A stretch of 64,000 nucleotides of DNA. Source: Lachnospiraceae bacterium (lineage in GTDB: Bacteria > Bacillota > Clostridia > Lachnospirales > Lachnospiraceae). Positions 5,449-57,112 of this stretch are shown in pieces. The stretch's first letter is position 1; every line of letters starts with the position of its first letter. The stretch is from the NCBI GenBank assembly GCA_045531895.1, contig JAZSEW010000026.1, positions 27,492-91,491 of the forward strand, written 5' to 3'. The notes under the pieces were generated by a model, which had not been told where the DNA came from, did not search any database, and saw only the letters and a program-made list of their open reading frames with translations. A program made the translations under genes and the position numbers.

Positions 5449-6789
5449 ATGGGTAAGTATTTCGGAACAGACGGTTTTCGTGGTGAAGCAAACGAAGACT
5501 TAACAGTAGAGCATGCATATAAAGTAGGACGGTATCTTGGCTGGTATTACGGTCAGGAACACAAGGCGAAGGTAGTCATCGGTAAAGATACCCGCCGTTC
5601 CAGTTATATGTTTGAGTATGCATTGGTAGCAGGTTTGACAGCCAGCGGCGCAGATGCATATCTGTTACATGTAACCACAACTCCAAGTGTATCTTATGTA
5701 GTAAAAAGTGAGGATTTTGACTGTGGCATCATGATTACAGCCAGTCATAATCCTTTTTATGATAACGGAATTAAAATTATTAACAGTTATGGTTATAAGG
5801 TGGAGGCTGAGGTAGAGGATAAGGTGGAAGCCTACATTGACGGAAAAATCGAAGAACTTCCTCTCGCTAAGAAAGAAAATATCGGTCGTACAGTTGACTA
5901 TGCCATGGGCAGACACCGCTATATCGGACATCTGATTTCCATTGCAACCAGAGCTTTTAAGGATATCAAGGTGGGGCTTGATTTGGCGAATGGTTCTGCA
6001 ACTACGGTAGCAAAGGGAGTTTTTGATGCTCTTGGTGCGAAAACATACGTTATGAGTAATGAACCAAATGGTTTTAACATTAATACCGATTGCGGTTCCA
6101 CCCATATCGAACATCTTCAGAAGTTTGTGGTAGATAACGGTCTTGCTGTCGGATTTGCCTATGATGGTGATGCAGATCGTTGTCTTGCAGTAGATGAAAA
6201 GGGCAATATTGTAGACGGTGACCAGATTATGTATCTTTGCGGGTTATATATGAAGGAACGGGGCGAGCTGAACAACAATACGGTTGTTACTACCGTCATG
6301 TCCAATATGGGCTTATATAAGGCATTGGATGCAGCCGGTATTGCTTATGAACAGACTGCGGTTGGTGACAAATATGTATTCGAAAATATGCAGAAAAATA
6401 ATCACTCTTTAGGTGGTGAAAATTCCGGTCATATTATTTTCAGTAAGCATGCCATGACCGGTGACGGTATTCTGACGTCCTTAAAGATTATGGAAGTAAT
6501 GTTAGAGAAGAAGCAGCCATTGTCTGAACTGTTAAAGGATATGAAGATTTATCCACAGGTGTTAAAGAATGTCCGTGTTCGTGATAAAAAAGAAGCCAGA
6601 GAGGATATGGAAGTGCAGGCGGCAGTTAAGGCAGGAGAGGCAAAGCTTGCCGGGGATGGCAGAATTCTTCTTCGTGAGAGCGGTACCGAGCCTGTGATTC
6701 GTGTAATGGCAGAAGCAGGAACCATGGAGCTTTGCAATGAAGTGGTAGATGACATTGTTGATGTTCTTAAGAAATTTAAGGTAGAATAA
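5449..6789 (+). CDS. glmM: Phosphoglucosamine mutase
   Basis: N-terminus MGKYFGTDGFRGEAN, phosphoserine loop TASHNP, and Mg site DGDADR. An RBS (aggagga) precedes the ATG at 5449. The upstream part of ORF 5218-6789 overlaps the previous gene and is not used. Confidence 0.95.
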   Translation: MGKYFGTDGFRGEANEDLTVEHAYKVGRYLGWYYGQEHKAKVVIGKDTRRSSYMFEYALVAGLTASGADAYLLHVTTTPSVSYVVKSEDFDCGIMITASHNPFYDNGIKIINSYGYKVEAEVEDKVEAYIDGKIEELPLAKKENIGRTVDYAMGRHRYIGHLISIATRAFKDIKVGLDLANGSATTVAKGVFDALGAKTYVMSNEPNGFNINTDCGSTHIEHLQKFVVDNGLAVGFAYDGDADRCLAVDEKGNIVDGDQIMYLCGLYMKERGELNNNTVVTTVMSNMGLYKALDAAGIAYEQTAVGDKYVFENMQKNNHSLGGENSGHIIFSKHAMTGDGILTSLKIMEVMLEKKQPLSELLKDMKIYPQVLKNVRVRDKKEAREDMEVQAAVKAGEAKLAGDGRILLRESGTEPVIRVMAEAGTMELCNEVVDDIVDVLKKFKVE

Positions 6790-6930
6790 GATGGAACAAA
6801 AGGAGGCCTGTTCTAAATTATCAAAAAAAATACTGGTAATTTGGAAAAAGGTATGATATACTAATCGGTATTGTGGGTAGGTAGGCGTAAAGGTGATACC
6901 TACCAAGAGGTTTAAGGAGGAAATTTTTTA

Positions 6931-8217: not shown

Positions 8218-8303
8218 TATATAAGTTGAAATAAAGTAATCTGCCCGCTTTTTTGTGGGCAGATACTTTGCTATGTAAAAGTGAGAAAACAGGGAGGCTT
8301 AAC

Positions 8304-8888
8304 ATGAGTTTTGTACCTTATGTTGTGGAACAGACCAGTAAGGGAGAACGTTCCTACGATATTTACTCCAGATTATTAAAAGACAGAATCATTTTTCTTG
8401 GTGATGAAGTAAATGACACTACAGCAAGTCTTGTAGTTGCCCAGTTGTTGTTTTTAGAGGCAGAAGATCCAAAGAAGGATATTCATCTTTACATCAACAG
8501 CCCGGGGGGGTCCGTAACCGCAGGTATGGCAATTTATGATACCATGCAGTTTATTAAGTGTGATGTATCTACCATTTGTATCGGTATGGCAGCCAGCATG
8601 GGTGCTTTCCTGCTTGCAGGCGGTGCAAAGGGTAAGAGAATGATTCTTCCGAATTCTGAGGTAATGATTCACCAGCCATCCGGCGGTGCAAGAGGTCAGG
8701 AAACAGAAATCCGTATTGCGGCGGAGAATATTTTAAGAACAAGAAAGAAATTAAACGAGATTCTTGCAGCAAATACCGGTAAGCCGGTAGAGGTAATTGC
8801 TGCTGATACTGAGCGTGACAACTACATGACCGCAGAACAGGCTTTGGAATATGGTCTTGTAGATGTAATTGTCAAAGAGAGAGCATAA
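8304..8888 (+). CDS. clpP: ATP-dependent Clp protease proteolytic subunit
   Basis: [19 protein letters not shown]-terminus, catalytic Ser in GMAASMGAF, and His in MIHQP. An RBS (gggagg) lies before the ATG at 8304. Confidence 0.95.
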
Positions 8889-8912: not shown

Positions 8913-10181
8913 ATGGCAAAATCAGATGATAAGAATATGGTTTGCTGTTCCTTTTGCGGAAAGCGTCAGGACCAGGTACACAGAATGCTTGCCGGCATGA
9001 ACGGTGCATTTATTTGTGATGCCTGTGTAGATCTCTGTTCCGAAATCATGGAAGAAGAGGAAGAAGATGCAGCCGCGCCTGCGGAGTATGCGGGAGAGCA
9101 GGGAATCAATCTGTTAAAGCCGAAGGAAATCAAAGAATTCCTTGACCAGTATGTTATTGGTCAGGAAGAAGCAAAGAAGGTGCTTTCGGTTGCCGTTTAC
9201 AATCACTATAAGAGAGTATTGTCTTCCGAAGAATCTGAAGTGGAGCTTCAGAAGAGTAATATTTTAATGATAGGTCCGACCGGTTCCGGTAAAACCTATC
9301 TTGCACAGACATTAGCCAAGCTTTTGAATGTTGCGTTTGCAATTGCAGACGCAACAGCCTTAACAGAGGCAGGTTATGTTGGTGAAGATGTAGAAAATAT
9401 TCTGTTAAAGATTATTCAGGCTGCCGACTTTAATATTGAACGCGCAGAATTTGGTATTATCTACATCGATGAAATCGATAAAATTACAAGAAAATCCGAA
9501 AATACATCCATTACAAGAGATGTTTCCGGCGAAGGTGTACAGCAGGCATTGTTAAAGATTCTGGAGGGAACGGTAGCTTCTGTTCCGCCACAGGGTGGCA
9601 GAAAACATCCGCATCAGGAATTCATTCAGATTGATACCACTAATATTCTCTTTATCTGTGGTGGCGCTTTTGACGGTCTGGAACGAATTGTGGAAAACAG
9701 AATCGGAGAAAAGGCAATGGGCTTCTCGGCAAAATTGTATGAGAAAGAAGACAAAAATATCGGCGAGTTATTCCGTCAGGTAATGCCTCAGGATTTGGTA
9801 AAGTTTGGGTTGATTCCTGAATTTATCGGACGTGTTCCGGTACATGTGGCATTGGATATGTTAGATGAGGATGCCCTTATCAGTATCCTGCGCGATCCAA
9901 AGAATGCCCTGACCAAGCAGTATCAGAAGCTGTTTGAGTTAGATGGCGTGGAGTTGGAATTCGAAGAGGATGCGCTCAGGGTATTTGCAAAACGAGCCTT
10001 GGAGTATAAGACAGGTGCACGTGGTCTTCGTTCTATAATGGAAAAGACACTTCTTGAAACAATGTATCAGATGCCTTCCGATGAAACGATTTTAAAGTGT
10101 ATCGTGACAAAGGAGTCAGCTGAAGGCTCTGAACAGCCTAGTCTTCTGGTCTCCGGTGGCGGACAGAAGCACGGCAGATAA
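8913..10181 (+). CDS. clpX: ATP-dependent Clp protease ATP-binding subunit ClpX
   Basis: N-terminal C4 zinc finger (CSFCGK...CDAC), Walker A GPTGSGKT and Walker [10 protein letters not shown]. Confidence 0.95.
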
Positions 10182-10268: not shown

Positions 10269-12629
10269 ATGAGTGAAGAAAAACAGCTGATGCCTGTGGT
10301 GGCACTAAAAGGTATTACCATGCTTCCGGGCATGTTGATTCACTTTGACATACAAAAAGAATCCAGCATCAGTGCAATCAATGTGGCGTTGCGGGAAGGA
10401 AAGTATATTCTTGTTATTACCCAGAAAAATACGGCGGTGGACGACCCGGAACAGGTAGATTTGTATCCGATGGGAACAGTTTCCGTAGTCAAGCAGATGA
10501 TTAAGATGCCGGGAAATCAGATTCGCGTATTGGCAACCGGTGTTCGCAGAGGGTATCTGGAAGAGCTTGTATCTACAGAACCGCATCTGGAGGGGATGGT
10601 ATCTCTGCCGGAGGAAGTAAATGCAGACTCTCTGACAATTATCGAGCAACGGGCAATGCTGCGTGGCTTAAAGGATATGCTGGATGTTTATGTGACAACG
10701 AATGAAAAGTTTGGTAAGGATATTGTAAAGCAGTTGATGAGTGTGGATACGGTAGATGCTTTGATAAATCAGGTGGCAATCAGTGTACCAATGACGATTA
10801 CTTCCAAACAGAAGATTCTGGATGCCGTTCATATCGTAGACCGGTATGAGGCAATTATGGTGATTCTTGCCAATGAAATAGAAATCATTCGTATCAAAAA
10901 GGACTTACAGGCAAAGGTAAAAGCAAAGGTTGACAAGAACCAGAAGGACTATGTGCTCAGAGAGCAGTTAAAGGTAATCCGTGACGAGTTAGGGGATGGT
11001 TCTACCGGAGATGACATTCCGGAGCTTTATACAAAGCTGGAGCAATTAGAAGCTGAAGAAGACGTAAAAAAGAAAATTAAAAAAGAAATTGACCGGTATA
11101 AATCCGTATTGGGAAGCCAGTCGGAAAGTGCGGTGGCAAGAGGCTATGTGGAAACACTGCTTGCACTGCCATGGGACCATGCCACCAAGGATAATCTGGA
11201 TATTGCCAGAGCGGAAAAAATATTAAACAGGGATCATTATGGCTTGGAAAAGGTAAAGGAACGTATTCTGGAATTTTTGGCAGTCCGTGCGTTGAATGAA
11301 AAGGGTCAGGCACCGATTATTTGTCTGGTAGGACCTCCAGGAACAGGAAAAACATCCATTGCAAGGTCTGTTGCCACGGCACTTAAGAAGGAATATGTCC
11401 GTATTTGTCTCGGAGGTGTCCGTGATGAAGCAGAAATCCGTGGGCATAGAAGAACCTATGTTGGTGCAATTCCTGGCCGATTAATCCAGGCCTTAAAATC
11501 TGCAAAAGTAAAGAATCCGCTGATGTTGCTTGATGAGATTGATAAGGTCAGTAGTGATTTTAAGGGAGATGTGGCATCTGCATTGCTGGAAGTATTAGAT
11601 CCGGAACAGAATAAGCATTTTGCCGATCATTATGTAGAAATTCCGGTGGATTTGTCGGAAGTACTGTTTATATGTACAGCGAATTCTACCCAGACTATTC
11701 CGAGACCGCTGTTAGACCGAATGGAAATTATTGAAGTGCACAGCTATACGGAAAACGAAAAGTATCATATTGCGAAAGATCACCTGGTGCCAAAGCAGTT
11801 AGAAAAACATGGTCTGACAAAGAAAGAATTGCAGATTAAGGCGGATGGTCTTCGGGAAGTGATTGCAAGCTATACAAGAGAAGCCGGTGTGCGTTCCCTG
11901 GAACGAAAAATCGGTGAGCTGTGCCGCAAGGCAGCCAAGGAAGTGTTAAAGGCTCGTCAGGCCGGAACTGAATTTGAATCAATTAAAATATCAAAGAAAA
12001 ATGTAACAGATTACCTCGGTAAAAAGAAATACCGTCAAAAGAAAGCTAATGAAGCGGCAGAGGTCGGTATTGTACGTGGGCTTGCATGGACGGAGGTTGG
12101 CGGTGACACATTGCAGATAGAAGTAAACAGCATGCCGGGTAAAGGAAATTTGCAACTCACCGGAAAGCTTGGGGATGTGATGAAGGAATCCGCCCAGATT
12201 GCCTTGAGCTTTGTACGTTCCAAGGTGGAAAATACAGATGTTCCGGCGGAATATTTTGAAAAGCATGATTTTCATTTGCATGTGCCGGAGAGAGCAGTAC
12301 CGAAAGACGGACCTTCTGCCGGAATTACGATGGCAACCGCTTTTTATTCCATGGTGTTGAATCTTCCGGTAAAAGCAGATGTGGCAATGACGGGAGAAAT
12401 TTCCCTGCGGGGAAAGGTACTTCCGATTGGTGGCTTGAAAGAAAAACTTCTGGCCGCAAAGCAGGCAGGAATAAAAATGGTGCTGATTCCGAAGGATAAC
12501 GAACCTGATCTGGAAGAAATTTCTGATGAAATTATCGGAGATATGACAGTGCTTCCTGTATCCGGCATGGATGAAGTGCTGGAGCATGCATTGGTACAAA
12601 AGCAGAGTTCGAAAAGGAGATTGATATGA
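10269..12629 (+). CDS. lon: Endopeptidase La (LonA protease)
   Basis: 786 aa with a LON N-domain, Walker A GPPGTGKTS, and a protease domain with PKDGPSAGITMATA (catalytic Ser) and a downstream Lys. Confidence 0.95.
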   Translation: MSEEKQLMPVVALKGITMLPGMLIHFDIQKESSISAINVALREGKYILVITQKNTAVDDPEQVDLYPMGTVSVVKQMIKMPGNQIRVLATGVRRGYLEELVSTEPHLEGMVSLPEEVNADSLTIIEQRAMLRGLKDMLDVYVTTNEKFGKDIVKQLMSVDTVDALINQVAISVPMTITSKQKILDAVHIVDRYEAIMVILANEIEIIRIKKDLQAKVKAKVDKNQKDYVLREQLKVIRDELGDGSTGDDIPELYTKLEQLEAEEDVKKKIKKEIDRYKSVLGSQSESAVARGYVETLLALPWDHATKDNLDIARAEKILNRDHYGLEKVKERILEFLAVRALNEKGQAPIICLVGPPGTGKTSIARSVATALKKEYVRICLGGVRDEAEIRGHRRTYVGAIPGRLIQALKSAKVKNPLMLLDEIDKVSSDFKGDVASALLEVLDPEQNKHFADHYVEIPVDLSEVLFICTANSTQTIPRPLLDRMEIIEVHSYTENEKYHIAKDHLVPKQLEKHGLTKKELQIKADGLREVIASYTREAGVRSLERKIGELCRKAAKEVLKARQAGTEFESIKISKKNVTDYLGKKKYRQKKANEAAEVGIVRGLAWTEVGGDTLQIEVNSMPGKGNLQLTGKLGDVMKESAQIALSFVRSKVENTDVPAEYFEKHDFHLHVPERAVPKDGPSAGITMATAFYSMVLNLPVKADVAMTGEISLRGKVLPIGGLKEKLLAAKQAGIKMVLIPKDNEPDLEEISDEIIGDMTVLPVSGMDEVLEHALVQKQSSKRRLI

Positions 12630-51764: not shown

Positions 51765-51791
51765 TTAGCACTCGAACTCGAAGAGTGCTAA
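51765..51791. promoter_or_regulatory. CIRCE operator (HrcA binding site) upstream of groES
   Basis: TTAGCACTC-gaactcgaa-GAGTGCTAA is a perfect match to the TTAGCACTC-N9-GAGTGCTAA consensus. It lies 45 nt upstream of the groES ATG. Confidence 0.92.
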
Positions 51792-52129: not shown

Positions 52130-52249
52130 AGGGCGGAATTGATAGCATTACAGTTTTTTATGTGAGCTTGCTTACAATAAGAACTGTAATGTTATCGATG
52201 GAGTGAAGCGACTGAGGAAAAACGAAGTTTTTTCGAAGACGCCCTTTAC
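52126..52249 (+). other. Structured groES-groEL intergenic element (nested hairpins)
   Basis: gtaaagggcg (52126-52135, overlapping the groES stop) is the exact complement of cgccctttac (52240-52249). Inside it, gatagcattacagtt (52141-52155) pairs with aactgtaatgttatc (52182-52196) over 15 contiguous pairs, one of them G-U. Confidence 0.6.
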
Positions 52250-52263
52250 ACAAAAAAATTTAG

Positions 52264-53895
<1,632 letters not shown>

Positions 53896-53921
53896 TTCAA
53901 TTGAATTAAGCATAGGTTACG

Positions 53922-53954
53922 AAGGGTCATGGTATCTGAGATTCCATGACCCTT
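53922..53954 (+). terminator. Hairpin just after groEL (possible terminator; no T-run)
   Basis: aagggtcatgg / ccatgaccctt, an 11-bp perfect stem with an 11-nt loop. It is followed by aaatgt, so intrinsic termination is uncertain. Confidence 0.45.
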
Positions 53955-53964
53955 AAATGTATTC

Positions 53965-54360
53965 TTCCGCACACATTTTTCTTTTCCGACTCAGCTGTTT
54001 TCCTCGGGGGCTTGCCGATGCAGCTTTCTTTTACGAGGACTATGTCTGCTACTTGGTGCTTTGCAAAAACTCGTCATCGGGTGGGAAGATTTTTTGATAT
54101 TTGGCTTGTTCAAAACATCCTGTGGATGTAATTCTAAGAAAAAGTCATGGTCTGTCAGACACAAGGTGTCCACAGACCATGAAACTTTTTCTTAAAGGCG
54201 CCTGAGCGCCTTTTGAACAATCCAAATGCCAAATGAAGTAAATGCTACACCCTCTGCCTCAAACAGTTTGCATAACACCAGACGCATCCATATCGTAACG
54301 AAAGCAGCACCGGAGCCACTGGGAAAACACTGAACGTCGGTGCAAGAAAAGTGGTGCGAA
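53965..54360. repeat. Large imperfect inverted repeat (arms ~150 nt) around a 26-bp central hairpin
   Basis: The central hairpin is 54135-54194. Arm blocks are complementary: 54099-54115 with 54211-54227, 54015-54036 with 54293-54313, 53986-54003 with 54322-54340, and 53965-53983 with 54344-54360. Confidence 0.8.
54194..54214. terminator. Small bidirectional terminator-like hairpin inside the post-groEL palindrome
   Basis: aaaggcgc-ctga-gcgcctttt; A-run / GC stem / T-run symmetry. Confidence 0.5.
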
Positions 54361-54395
54361 AAGCTATGTTACAGAGATACAAATTGGGATTAGTA

Positions 54396-54743
54396 TTAAG
54401 CAGGAAAACTTCTAAAATAGATTATATTCCTATCAGGGTCATAAAAACTCATGTTAACAGCACCCCAAGGACGCGGAGTAGGTTTTTCAATAATTTCAAC
54501 GCCCATCGCAAGTAATTTATGGTATTCCACATCAATATTATTTACAGTAAAGGACAAACTAATATTTTGATTGTTGTTATTCTTATGTAAGCCATCATTA
54601 TATATCGTAAATTGTGTTTCTTCACATATTAGTATCTGGTGTATTTCATCGTCACTACCATTATCTATTTCTAATATTTGTTTATAAAAATTTGCAAGCC
54701 TTGATACATCGTTTGTGTTTAGACACACTTCGCCAATTTTCAT
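54396..54743 (-). CDS. VOC-family (glyoxalase/bleomycin-resistance fold) protein
   Basis: 115 aa. MKIGEVCLNTNDVSRLANFYKQIL... and C-terminal ...PWGAVNMSFYDPDRNIIYF are typical of the family. The gene is visibly more AT-rich than its neighbours. Confidence 0.7.
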   Translation of the reverse strand: MKIGEVCLNTNDVSRLANFYKQILEIDNGSDDEIHQILICEETQFTIYNDGLHKNNNNQNISLSFTVNNIDVEYHKLLAMGVEIIEKPTPRPWGAVNMSFYDPDRNIIYFRSFPA

Positions 54744-54773
54744 ATATACCTCCGTAAGTACATATTTTCTCTA

Positions 54774-55439
54774 CTACACCAATCTAAAATGTTCCGCCAA
54801 TCTGGCACAAACTTCTTCCCTGGTATCTCTGTCGCCATCTTCCCGCACCAGTGTAAAGAATCCACTATTTAAAAATTCCTCATAATGTTCCTTGCTGTTA
54901 ATGCGTGCCAGACCTTTCCGGTAATTTTCCATTACTTCCCCGGAATTTTCACAACTATCAATAACACTAAGAATAAATTGCTTTTCCGGGTCGTTACGGT
55001 CAAAAAAGCGCTCTACACTCATGCTCTGCGGCGAGAGCATCACTGCTACATGCTGATAATCAGAAATCTCTTTTAAGATACCCAGTGGAATGTTGGTGTC
55101 AACAATTACTTTTTTGTCACGGGAAAGAGAAATCAGTTCTGCAATCTCAAACCCGGCGGCTTCTATTCCTGTGCCGTAAATCCAGCGCTCGTATTCCTCC
55201 GGAGTACGGGTGACAAACTCCTTGAAATCGTTCAGATTTTTTATGTAGCACAAATCCGGCTGGATGGCAGGGTCAGCCACTATATCGGTAACTTCGGTAA
55301 AATAATTTTCACCGCAGAATACCATATCATATTTTTCTGCCAGCATTGTCACCATAGTGGATTTTCCTGCATAAGCAGTGCCGGTAATGAAATAAACATT
55401 ACGCAGATAATGCTTTAAAATATTATTTTCTATTTTCAT
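54774..55439 (-). CDS. P-loop NTPase (kinase-like, uncharacterised)
   Basis: Walker A GTAYAGKST near the N-terminus. The start is at MKIENNIL, preceded by the RBS gaaagga. Confidence 0.55.
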   Translation of the reverse strand: MKIENNILKHYLRNVYFITGTAYAGKSTMVTMLAEKYDMVFCGENYFTEVTDIVADPAIQPDLCYIKNLNDFKEFVTRTPEEYERWIYGTGIEAAGFEIAELISLSRDKKVIVDTNIPLGILKEISDYQHVAVMLSPQSMSVERFFDRNDPEKQFILSVIDSCENSGEVMENYRKGLARINSKEHYEEFLNSGFFTLVREDGDRDTREEVCARLAEHFRLV

Positions 55440-55567
55440 AGCAGTTCCTTTCTCAATCAAGAAGCTGAAGCGCAGATAATATTTTTTATAAAAAGTATAT
55501 CACAGTTTGAATGTTTTGAAAATGAAAATCTTATTTTTTGCTTTGTGAAAAGAAATAATCAAACATA

Positions 55568-55597
55568 TTGCAAAAATATACGGAAGTGTAGTACAAT
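55568..55597 (+). promoter_or_regulatory. Possible promoter for the PAS-GGDEF gene
   Basis: TTGCAA, 18 nt, TACAAT. Confidence 0.4.
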
Positions 55598-55659
55598 ATA
55601 ACCTGGAGAAGTTTGAATATGACAGTTACTTGTAAATGGATATAAGTGTAAGGAGAATA

Positions 55660-56973
55660 ATGGGGATGAAAGCAACAGAAAAAGGATTATTAGAAACCGC
55701 GTTTCAGATGCTGTTACAGGCTTCGTCAGATATGATATTTGTAAAGGATGCCAACCTGGTATATCAGGCAGCGTCCATGTCTTTTGTTTCAATGGTCGGG
55801 AAAGCATCGGCAGAAGAAATTATCGGACATACGGATAGTGAGATTTTTAAGGATCCGCAGTTGGCAAAGCGTTATGAACGAGATGACAGAAAATTGATGG
55901 AGACGCAAAAGGACTTGCTGAATTTTGTGGAGCCGATTCCTGATGTAGATGGGCAATCCAGATACGGTTTTACAACAAAGTGCCTGGTAAGAGATGAAAA
56001 AGGCCGGGTTATCGGAATTCTTGGCATTACAAAAGATATTACCTTGGAATATTTTGCACGGCAAAGGTATCAGCAGGAACTCAGATATTTGTTTGGGCTT
56101 CCGGAGGATACTTATGCAGTATGTTACATAGATGTGGATGACTGGCGTATTATTAAACAAAAGCGTCAGCTGATAGCAGGAGGTACGTTGCAGGAGTGTC
56201 AGACGGTGGAGGAAATATGCAGTTATGCAGTGGAATCTATTGCAAATCAGAATAATCCGGCGGTAGAATTTTATTCCGGCTTTGAACCAACCGTGCTGTG
56301 GCAGATATATACCGACGGAAGAAGTAATATTACTTTTGAGTATGAGCGTAGACTGTCTAACGGTTCTGCCAGATGGGTGCGTAATGAGGTACATTTTTTG
56401 TCGGATGTGGATAGCGGGCATTTATGCGTTATGCTGTCGGCAAAGGATATTCATGAAAGCAAGCTGGAAGAACAAAAAATTATTGATGCGGCAAGGCTGG
56501 ATCGGATGACAAAGGTATTTAACCGTGAAACGGCAATGGAATACATCCGGAGGATATTGGAAAAGGAACCGAACCACCAGCATGCGTTATTTATGCTGGA
56601 TATTGACAATTTTAAAGCATTAAATGATACTCTGGGGCATCAGGCAGGGGATGAGTTTTTGATACACCTGGCAAGTAGGCTAAAGGATGCATTCAGAGAC
56701 AGTGATGTGGTAGGACGAATCGGCGGAGATGAATTTTTCATCTTTTTACGAAATATACCTGAAATAAAGCAGATTGAAAAACGGGCAGGGGATGTTCTGG
56801 ATGTTGTAGCTTCCCTTGCAAAAGGATATTTGAATCTGGATTTGAGCGGAAGCATTGGAATAAGTCTTTATCCGAAGCATGGTGAAACACTGGACGATTT
56901 ATATACAAGGGCGGATGAGGCCTTGTATATTGCAAAGAATCTGGGGAAAAACCGGTATATATTTGCAAAATAG
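55660..56973 (+). CDS. Cytoplasmic PAS-PAS-GGDEF diguanylate cyclase
   Basis: DRMTKVFNRE...LDIDNFKALNDTLGHQAGD...RIGGDEFFIF...SIG...ADEALYIAKNLGKN, with two PAS-like regions upstream. Start candidates are 55636, 55660 and 55666; an RBS (aggag) lies at 55651. Confidence 0.85.
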   Translation: MGMKATEKGLLETAFQMLLQASSDMIFVKDANLVYQAASMSFVSMVGKASAEEIIGHTDSEIFKDPQLAKRYERDDRKLMETQKDLLNFVEPIPDVDGQSRYGFTTKCLVRDEKGRVIGILGITKDITLEYFARQRYQQELRYLFGLPEDTYAVCYIDVDDWRIIKQKRQLIAGGTLQECQTVEEICSYAVESIANQNNPAVEFYSGFEPTVLWQIYTDGRSNITFEYERRLSNGSARWVRNEVHFLSDVDSGHLCVMLSAKDIHESKLEEQKIIDAARLDRMTKVFNRETAMEYIRRILEKEPNHQHALFMLDIDNFKALNDTLGHQAGDEFLIHLASRLKDAFRDSDVVGRIGGDEFFIFLRNIPEIKQIEKRAGDVLDVVASLAKGYLNLDLSGSIGISLYPKHGETLDDLYTRADEALYIAKNLGKNRYIFAK

Positions 56974-57112
56974 TACTGCAAAATTTCTTAAAATTTTATA
57001 TACTCCCGATTGAAAAGCGGAAAGTTTTTTTATATACTGTAAAGTAAGATGTTTTTTTGAATAATATCGGAAAAACAACAAAAGTTTATATAACATGTAG
57101 GAGGATTACATA

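Follow-up and report, generated by a model that had tools for sequence, protein, structure and literature searches.

What is the highly ordered DNA that follows groEL in a Lachnospiraceae bacterium, and what maintains it? We addressed this question on a stretch of 64,000 nucleotides from contig JAZSEW010000026.1 (assembly GCA_045531895.1), hereafter called the window. In it, a 500-nt gap separates groEL (52276-53895, + strand) from a convergent glyoxalase/VOC gene (54396-54743, - strand). The gap contains a 418-nt imperfect palindrome, whose sequence is present once in the 64 kb and is their sole long palindrome. We propose tentatively, with a probability of about 0.45, that this element belongs to a new, narrowly distributed family of large (~360-430 nt), rod-shaped structured RNAs tied to the 3' region of groESL. 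The argument is carried by its fold, by selection on its base pairing, by the homology of its junction domain between two sequence types and by covariation around a small loop module. We found no earlier description of such a family, which would belong with the structured non-coding elements already known from bacteria; a search of the literature, for Lachnospiraceae and for the vicinity of groEL, gave nothing relevant on long hairpins or palindromes.

Fold of the element and conservation of its base pairs

Folded with RNAfold, the + strand of the element reaches -165.5 kcal/mol, against -107.9 ± 5.4 kcal/mol for dinucleotide shuffles (z = -10.7). The - strand reaches -179.2 kcal/mol (z = -12.5), and for neither strand was any of 100 shuffles as stable. 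On either strand, the 418 nt form a single nested hairpin, with arms that are overall ~75-80% complementary. An earlier sequence-only reading of the window had described the palindrome part by part, and a base-by-base check finds the core hairpin, both side hairpins, the enclosing stem and a separate hairpin at 53922-53954 where it had placed them (Table 1). The core consists of two blocks, 54135-54145/54184-54194 and 54145-54155/54172-54182, both 100% complementary, with the tip gacac-aag-gtgtc; the enclosing stem, as scanned, covers 54093-54115/54211-54233 and is 87% complementary. Two of the three outer arm blocks of that description were returned by the repeat scan (54015-54031/54297-54313 and 53974-53983/54344-54353). 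The third, 53986-54003/54322-54340, is paired in the predicted fold, and the scan gave no separate repeat pair there.

We looked for homologues in relatives gathered by GroEL identity; the retrieved loci on their contigs are designated by L-numbers. A copy of the window type occurs in L023 (84.7% identity over 464 nt, GroEL 99% identical) and also in L024, L025 and L026. These four copies adjoin downstream genes different from those of the window; in L023, the convergent gene is ARMT1-like. At the same position, L003, L008 and L196 carry a second type, a palindrome of ~360-430 nt that blastn cannot align to that of the window; the L003 and L008 elements are 69.5% identical. Every full-length copy of both types lies directly after groEL.

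No conserved open reading frame (ORF) was found: those within the element do not exceed 61 aa and are not kept in the 85%-identical L023 homologue, in line with the sequence-only reading. A small protein starting at ~54035 from GAGGA-N3-ATG was rejected, as the spacing is too short and the 17-aa product is poorly conserved.

The base pairs, on the other hand, are kept. At the four-fold degenerate sites of groEL, the window and L023 differ by 32%, L003 and L008 by 43.5%. Out of the window's 165 predicted pairs, 137 are unchanged in L023, 6 are double-changed and still paired, a further 6 carry a one-sided change and still pair (G-U type), 11 are broken and 5 gapped. Paired sites diverge by 9.5%, unpaired sites by 34%. 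A neutral simulation with 16% change per site, half of the four-fold divergence, broke 35 ± 5 pairs and, over 2000 runs, at least 20. Between L008 and L003, 87 of 154 pairs are unchanged, 24 double-compensated, 9 changed on one side and 27 broken, whereas 43-73 broken and 3-12 compensated pairs came out of the corresponding simulation. When the three second-type sequences are aligned (A9), 25 pairs are double-changed, against 9.7 ± 2.4 in shuffles (0 of 500 as many) and at most 6 in slid-partner controls.

Pairs supported by compensatory change beyond controls, as expected of a structured non-coding RNA, are thus present. Changed pairs between the window and L023 are few and mostly not double, so that, judged from the aligned sequences, the pattern looks like purifying selection on the folded strand. 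The suggestion that shape is preserved here, rather than a simple inverted duplication, is supported by the compensatory changes, by broken pairs far below the neutral number and by a sequence-unrelated homologue that has the same junction.

Two sequence types and a recurrent loop module

The second type is built as a long interrupted stem followed by a four-way junction, which holds a hairpin of the GYCC-NNN-GGRC type, a long core hairpin (A-rich/U-rich) and a third hairpin made of an A-tract, GC and a T-tract. The junction domains of L003 and L008, and no others, were used to build a covariance model, R1. This model matches the window at 54080-54247 (+) with 28.7 bits (E ~3e-6), and L023 with E ~9e-5. 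In the alignment to the window, the closing stem, side hairpin 1, the core and side hairpin 2 each fall on their counterpart, in order. Given this helix-by-helix match to the model, the inner domains of the two types are homologous, although no similarity can be detected between their outer arms. Side hairpin 1 corresponds to GCGTCC-NNN-GGACGC of L003, L008 and L196, with two compensatory pairs, and side hairpin 2 to AAAAGTGC-TTC-GCAC in L003 and AAAAATGC-GAA-GCATTTTT in L008. Among ~170 other Lachnospiraceae groEL loci, R1 found nothing credible; its match in L031 (E = 0.05) is an ordinary terminator hairpin. Readings of the element by eye as a DnaA box, IHF site, LexA box, CIRCE-like site or k-turn were discarded, since the matching bases differ between the types.

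Both types share an asymmetric internal loop, 5'-AACUC opposite 5'-UCARACAG on the groEL-sense strand, common to the window, L023, L003, L008 and L196. The helices on its two sides covary across lineages: the outer one reads GCAAA/TTTGC, CCGAA/TTCGG, CCGA/TCGG, GCGCA/TGCGC or ACGCA/TGCGT, and the inner one GTCA/TGCC in the window, GTCG/CGAC in L023, GGCA/TGCC in L003 and L008, GCGG/CCGC in L058, and also CAG/CTG. In alignment A5, 93.7% of the cells of the flanking helices are paired, against 63% in shuffles (0 of 500 as high) and at most 35% in slid controls; the L058 and L109 copies were found by a descriptor that requires pairing, which inflates this percentage but not the covariation. Seven of the nine module-helix pairs are double-changed.

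The copies in L058 and L109 lie in other palindromes, within ~2.5 kb of the groESL operon. In L058, a distant Lachnospiraceae (GroEL 85% identical), a 302-nt palindrome with ~85 bp of perfect arms occupies 8270-8571, between DUF6106 and guaB, with the module at its tip. In L109 (GroEL 94% identical), a 594-nt fold-back of about -304 kcal/mol spans 455-1048 upstream of the groES operon, flanked by DUF2225 and an acetyltransferase gene. Its arms are ~200 bp long, 113 nt of them 92% complementary, and each arm carries one AACTC/TCAGACAG hairpin copy, in inverted orientation. Such long, nearly perfect arms point to recent palindrome formation around the module in L058 and L109. What the module encloses varies in size, from a 5-bp hairpin in L058 and L109 to the ~180-nt junction domain of the window, a variation like that of the variable stems in known RNAs.

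Table 1 Features of the element and of the adjacent hairpin, in window coordinates
Feature	Position	Strand	Sequence, pairing or basis
Whole imperfect palindrome, a long interrupted hairpin (rod and four-way junction)	53958-54375		418 nt
Left outer arm of the rod	53965-54062		Repeats, fold, pair conservation
Module outer helix, 5' half	54063-54067	+	GCAAA; pairs with 54267-54271
Module loop strand	54068-54072	+	AACTC; invariant in the window, L023, L003, L008, L058 and both L109 copies
Module inner helix, 5' half	54073-54076	+	GTCA; pairs with 54255-54258, one mismatch
Stem closing the four-way junction, 5' half	54099-54115		Pairs with 54211-54227; aligned to the closing stem of model R1
Side hairpin 1	54115-54129		ACATCC-TGT-GGATGT
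Central (core) hairpin	54135-54194		~26 bp, 3-nt loop
Side hairpin 2	54194-54214		AAAGGCGC-CTGA-GCGCCTTTT; A-tract, G+C hairpin, T-tract
Stem closing the four-way junction, 3' half	54211-54227		Repeat scan
Module inner helix, 3' half	54255-54258	+	TGCC; pairs with 54073-54076
Module loop strand	54259-54266	+	TCAAACAG; variants TCA[A/G]ACA[G/T], degenerate solely in the L109B copy
Module outer helix, 3' half	54267-54271	+	TTTGC; pairs with 54063-54067
Right outer arm of the rod	54272-54365		Repeats, fold, pair conservation
groEL-proximal hairpin	53922-53954	+	16-bp arms, 94% complementary; followed by AAAUGUAUUCUU, no clean U-tract

In ~1.5 Mb of related loci, the descriptor and a further model, R3, found no more copies of the module. 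Module-like matches in L029, L094, L049, L133 and L192 are attributed to chance, the sequence around them being coding or non-palindromic. Genome and metagenome collections scanned with GroEL as anchor yielded no new copies of the element among the matches listed (GroEL 83-92% identical). A metagenome pattern scan for the window-type stem base gave 0 matches, in a collection that does not hold these samples and with a pattern that matches the known loci.

The survey also brought up other long intergenic palindromes near groESL, at L056 7656-7916, L033 1469-1709, L131 1615-1868 and L171 3283-3443, without the loop module and without an Rfam match. The - strand of the L056 palindrome folds better by 30 kcal/mol; this palindrome follows groEL, and it was dismissed as a bearer of the module because its AAACAGT is base-paired. 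In two Roseburia metagenome-assembled genomes (L036 7692-8042 and L041 ~6550-6896), 5.5 tandem copies of a G+C-rich 64-nt unit come directly after groEL; L036 also has a GA-cis RNA at 9261-9349.

Locus, transcription and competing explanations

The gene order groES-groEL-DUF6106-guaB is widespread in Lachnospiraceae and is ancestral. In relatives with 92-94% identical GroEL (L011-13, L019-21, L109), DUF6106 starts 20-90 nt after groEL. Within the clade of the window, the slot that groEL and DUF6106/guaB enclose (53896-57112 of the window, compared with L002-L026) varies from strain to strain, with gene content that differs among strains of identical GroEL. The element is followed in the window by the VOC gene, an unknown 228-aa protein and a PAS-GGDEF protein; elsewhere the slot holds an ABC ATPase, LysR, MCP, or an ARMT1-like protein with a 2'-5' RNA ligase. 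No mobility genes were found in the slot across the compared strains, and none of the element's neighbours in the window is a mobility gene, transposase, RAYT, invertase/recombinase or integrase. Many metagenome contigs and assemblies end 40-520 nt after groEL. Upstream of groES, the window has a perfect CIRCE operator at 51765-51791 (TTAGCACTC-N9-GAGTGCTAA, with GAACTCGAA as spacer); the operon is therefore probably under HrcA control. The spacer between groES and groEL is unusually long, 146 nt (52130-52275), and holds a hairpin at 52138-52199 with 30-nt arms, 80% complementary.

Neither strand has a U-tract after the rod, and the terminator scan lists no intrinsic terminator at the rod ends; side hairpin 2 alone resembles one, with 4 U. 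The groEL-proximal hairpin differs from that of L023 by two compensatory pairs, read directly from the alignment. In the second type (L003, L008, L196), the equivalent hairpin is included in the palindrome itself, where a mirror hairpin at the opposite end is its pairing partner. At L003 5136-5150 and L008 5146-5158 (-), a terminator-like hairpin faces the palindrome from the right, with compensatory changes (GTTGCGAAGCAAC versus GCTGCGCGGCAGC); it is kept in L008 although no - strand gene remains there.

We suggest that the functional form of the element is a folded single strand, most likely RNA. Extrusion of a cruciform from duplex DNA is unlikely at ~75-80% arm complementarity. The imperfect arms thus favour a folded single strand over a cruciform, which leaves a transcript or transient single-stranded DNA, and the chromosomal, non-conjugative context points to the former. 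Together, the fixed orientation, the position after groEL (groEL-DUF6106 in L058) and the weak U-tract of the hairpin ending at 53954 suggest a 3' extension of the groESL transcript. From this we infer the strand and the mode of transcription; transcription might also come from the convergent gene. The rod, with its conserved asymmetric loop, ends in a four-way junction of two small hairpins and one long, and loop and junction may offer a surface to which a protein or another RNA binds.

Several observations weigh against this RNA. The - strand is more stable by 7-14 kcal/mol in all copies, which makes the strand signal ambiguous, and counts of G-U versus A-C mismatches assign no strand significantly; a later count was discarded, as folding of the - strand alone had biased it. 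A promoter scan found no conserved promoter on either strand; in the second type, inward-facing terminator-like hairpins stand at both ends of the palindrome and could exclude transcription from outside. The pairing statistics rest on five full-length copies (two plus three), and pairs were defined from one sequence, an ascertainment bias that favours unchanged pairs. Arm-to-arm gene conversion or template switching in quasi-palindromes can also mimic compensatory change. Furthermore, the element is dispensable and unstable: strains with identical GroEL carry it, deleted remnants of it, or nothing. L009/L010 and L022 derive from the second type by internal deletion; in L004, L005, L007, L110 and L112-114, just a near-perfect 24-bp hairpin is left, derived from both ends of a window-type stem; L002, L006, L015-18, L107 and L108 lack the element. 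Finally, L003 and L196 have arms 83-89% identical, and their junction domains match better when one is inverted (78.5% versus 67.6%), whereas L196 and L008 agree in junction orientation (78.3%) with arms just ~70% identical. This flip/flop exchanges two "shoulders", each a side hairpin with the base of the core stem, while the ~50-nt core tip and the module keep their orientation. Such exchange between close relatives might not be tolerated by an orientation-sensitive RNA, and it implies little constraint on the orientation of part of the junction.

These properties recall a DNA-level fold-back palindrome without RNA function, in which the flanks of the module hairpin would be duplicated in inverted orientation through snap-back or template-switch replication seeded by that hairpin, with complementarity then upheld by arm-to-arm conversion and eroded by central deletions. 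This is unlikely, and is the alternative that we take most seriously. The module sits at the axis of three palindromes with unrelated arms (window type, L008 type and L058) and once per arm in a fourth, L109. The ~85 bp of perfect arms in L058 speak for recent DNA events; the flip/flop shoulders and deletion derivatives fit as well, as do the failure to find a promoter and the many metagenome contigs that break here. We estimate, however, that if conversion acted alone, changed pairs would reach at least about half of their neutral number and be double almost without exception. Between the window and L023, 23 pairs are changed and just 6 of them double, when 35-63 broken pairs are expected neutrally without conversion. 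Bulges and internal loops common to the window and L023 have not been homogenised, and the asymmetric loops keep one orientation across full-length lineages and L058 (the L109 duplicates depart from it), whereas conversion would erase them. Both ideas might be combined: the ~30-nt module hairpin (AACUC/UCARACAG) may be an active site, in DNA or RNA, that repeatedly nucleates long fold-back palindromes, with four independent arm sets (window type, L008 type, L058 and L109) that isomerise by flip/flop, and the product may also be selected as a rod-shaped RNA. We regard this combination as rather doubtful, and give as little credit to a generic 3'-end barrier between two convergent units, which would block 3'-exonucleases or read-through with no specific ligand. 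REP/BIME elements and the 'positive retroregulator' of Bacillus thuringiensis are precedents for such barriers. A convergent gene ends ~20 nt away in the window and in L023, groESL is a highly expressed CIRCE-controlled operon, and folding of both strands, flip/flop tolerance and strain-level dispensability fit an orientation-free, non-essential role. Yet L008 has no convergent gene beside the element, the rod is followed by no U-tract, and an asymmetric loop, a four-way junction and 400 nt of structure far exceed what blocking an exonuclease needs.

The sequence-only reading had offered three explanations: a structured RNA or 3'-UTR element, a MITE/REP-like element, and a cruciform or recombination site. 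The RNA remains the best supported. For the last, a classical cruciform is unlikely given the arm complementarity, while central deletions, flip/flop and the new, almost perfect palindromes that surround the module in other species are the behaviour of an unstable palindrome, so that the recombination idea is partly right. A non-autonomous mobile element (MITE, REP or REPIN-like) that landed after groEL is improbable: a palindrome that is imperfect, lies between genes at a 3' end and is polymorphic for presence/absence would suit it, but it is weakened by the single copy in the 64 kb, the binding to one locus and the failure to see a transposase nearby or direct repeats at the ends. R1 and R3 detect no extra copy in ~1.5 Mb of related groEL loci, and full-length copies and module hairpins alike keep to the surroundings of groESL. 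No transposase or RAYT lies nearby, and direct repeats were not seen at the ends of the window element or of the L109 fold-back by eye, with no dedicated search. Phage and plasmid records gave no match in a sensitive blastn, and pattern scans of viral contigs gave one chance match inside a phage gene for one pattern and zero for the other. Other Lachnospiraceae do have repeated palindromic elements: in L062 (Dorea sp. D27), two copies of a ~210-nt palindromic repeat lie just downstream of guaB (9815-10022 and 10665-10872), which suggests a MITE-like repeat in this strain. The least probable of all is a programmed invertible (phase-variable) switch. Junction shoulders do occur in both orientations among close relatives, and assemblies often break here. 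No invertase or other recombinase lies nearby, however, orientation differs between strains and was not seen to differ within one sample, and no promoter or terminator would be reoriented, because the swapped parts are small palindromic hairpins; the promoter scan had turned up no conserved one. It is hardly more probable that the element is a far-diverged and larger relative of the TwoAYGGAY RNA, working as a small RNA that titrates CsrA. This family (RF01731) belongs to Rfam's Csr-Rsm protein-binding clan (PMC5753348) and was proposed as a CsrA-binding small RNA of Clostridia (PMC4333381). As the sequence-only reading anticipated, Rfam names no family here: the window has no match at the gathering score, nor at E ≤ 10 on 2.5 kb or on 456 nt, and scans of the related loci gave no family for the element. 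A true TwoAYGGAY RNA, which serves as positive control, was found in L027 (a Lachnospiraceae metagenome-assembled genome, GroEL 92% identical to the window's) at 8313-8479 (-), with 96.4 bits and E = 8e-16, inside a ~250-300-nt palindrome in the DUF6106-guaB gap; it is the sole one among ~170 groEL loci searched. The family's consensus 'AaacACAGcaa...uugCGUCAag' resembles the + strand 'AAACUCGGCAA...CUGCCUCAAA' by eye, and within side hairpin 1, L023 has ACGGAU and L196 has AUGGAC. But the window stays below the gathering threshold of 43 bits, L003, L008, L058 and L109 have no match, and R2, a model made of the Rfam consensus core and L027, finds L027 alone and neither the window nor any module-bearing locus. 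There are no AYGGAY terminal loops: the GGA of side hairpin 1 (UGU-GGAUGU) is base-paired, and side hairpin 2 and the core tip have none. A CsrA sponge was rejected, as the window type has no excess of GGA (5 and 7 occurrences, where 5.4 and 6.1 are expected) and carries it mostly in stems. The element is not a TwoAYGGAY RNA, and the short likeness around its junction-closing stem is a lead only.

The element combines features in an unusual way: a 400-nt rod, a conserved four-way junction, a short loop that recurs in unrelated palindromes, and a flip/flop junction. It adjoins the main heat-shock chaperonin operon of abundant, uncultured rumen and gut Lachnospiraceae. If it is an RNA, a new family would be defined, and groESL might be subject to a further, post-transcriptional layer; if it acts at the DNA level, it would be a natural system for the origin, persistence and decay of long palindromes in bacterial chromosomes. 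Its general importance is limited by its narrow distribution, one clade of uncultured Lachnospiraceae, and by its dispensability.

Comparison with known systems

Large structured bacterial non-coding elements are rare, and those that were solved (OLE, ROOL, GOLLD, HEARO/omega RNA, raiA) gave unexpected biology. Like the element, OLE, ROOL, GOLLD, HEARO and raiA are hundreds of nt long and narrowly distributed, with Firmicutes and rumen bacteria among their hosts; they were recognised through covariation, and their functions are unknown or recently found. The element differs from them by its rod-like, near-symmetric shape, by having no Rfam match and by its loss or truncation in close strains. 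TwoAYGGAY is likewise a family of Clostridiales and gut bacteria, a long hairpin whose internal loops close a junction holding small hairpins, and its member in L027 lies in a long palindrome of the same groEL-DUF6106-guaB neighbourhood. That RNA, however, is 168 nt long with a three-way junction, against ~420 nt and a four-way junction here; it has the AYGGAY loops that the element lacks, no covariance model connects the two in either direction, and the L027 copy is on the strand opposite groEL.

REP, BIME, REPIN and MITE sequences are also imperfect palindromes downstream of genes, often between convergent genes, dispensable and variable among strains, and REP-type repeats have been proposed to stabilise the upstream mRNA. 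These are multi-copy, dispersed and linked to RAYT or transposases, whereas the element is single-copy in the sequence searched, confined to groESL, ten times as long as a REP and endowed with a conserved branched core. Integron attC sites resemble it in that structure, not sequence, is conserved: they are imperfect palindromes with conserved unpaired bases, their terminal structure varies, and so do the genes beside them. They measure 57-141 nt, have complementary R''/R' boxes (RYYYAAC / GTTRRRY) and an adjoining integrase. An attC site was rejected here, on the 418 nt of the element, three times the length of such a site, on loop strands AACTC and TCAAACAG that are not complementary and on the absence of an integrase among the neighbours.

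Parvoviral inverted terminal repeats and the telomere hairpins of poxviruses stand at the ends of linear DNA, with hairpin-primed replication and dedicated nickases. The element lies within a bacterial chromosome, no such enzymes are encoded nearby, and its third hairpin, the central one, keeps its orientation. What it shares with these termini is a large palindrome with two different hairpins in mirror positions, in flip and flop orders. Should the module indeed nucleate palindromes, the element would be a chromosomal, bacterial counterpart of the hairpin-primed dynamics known so far from viral termini.

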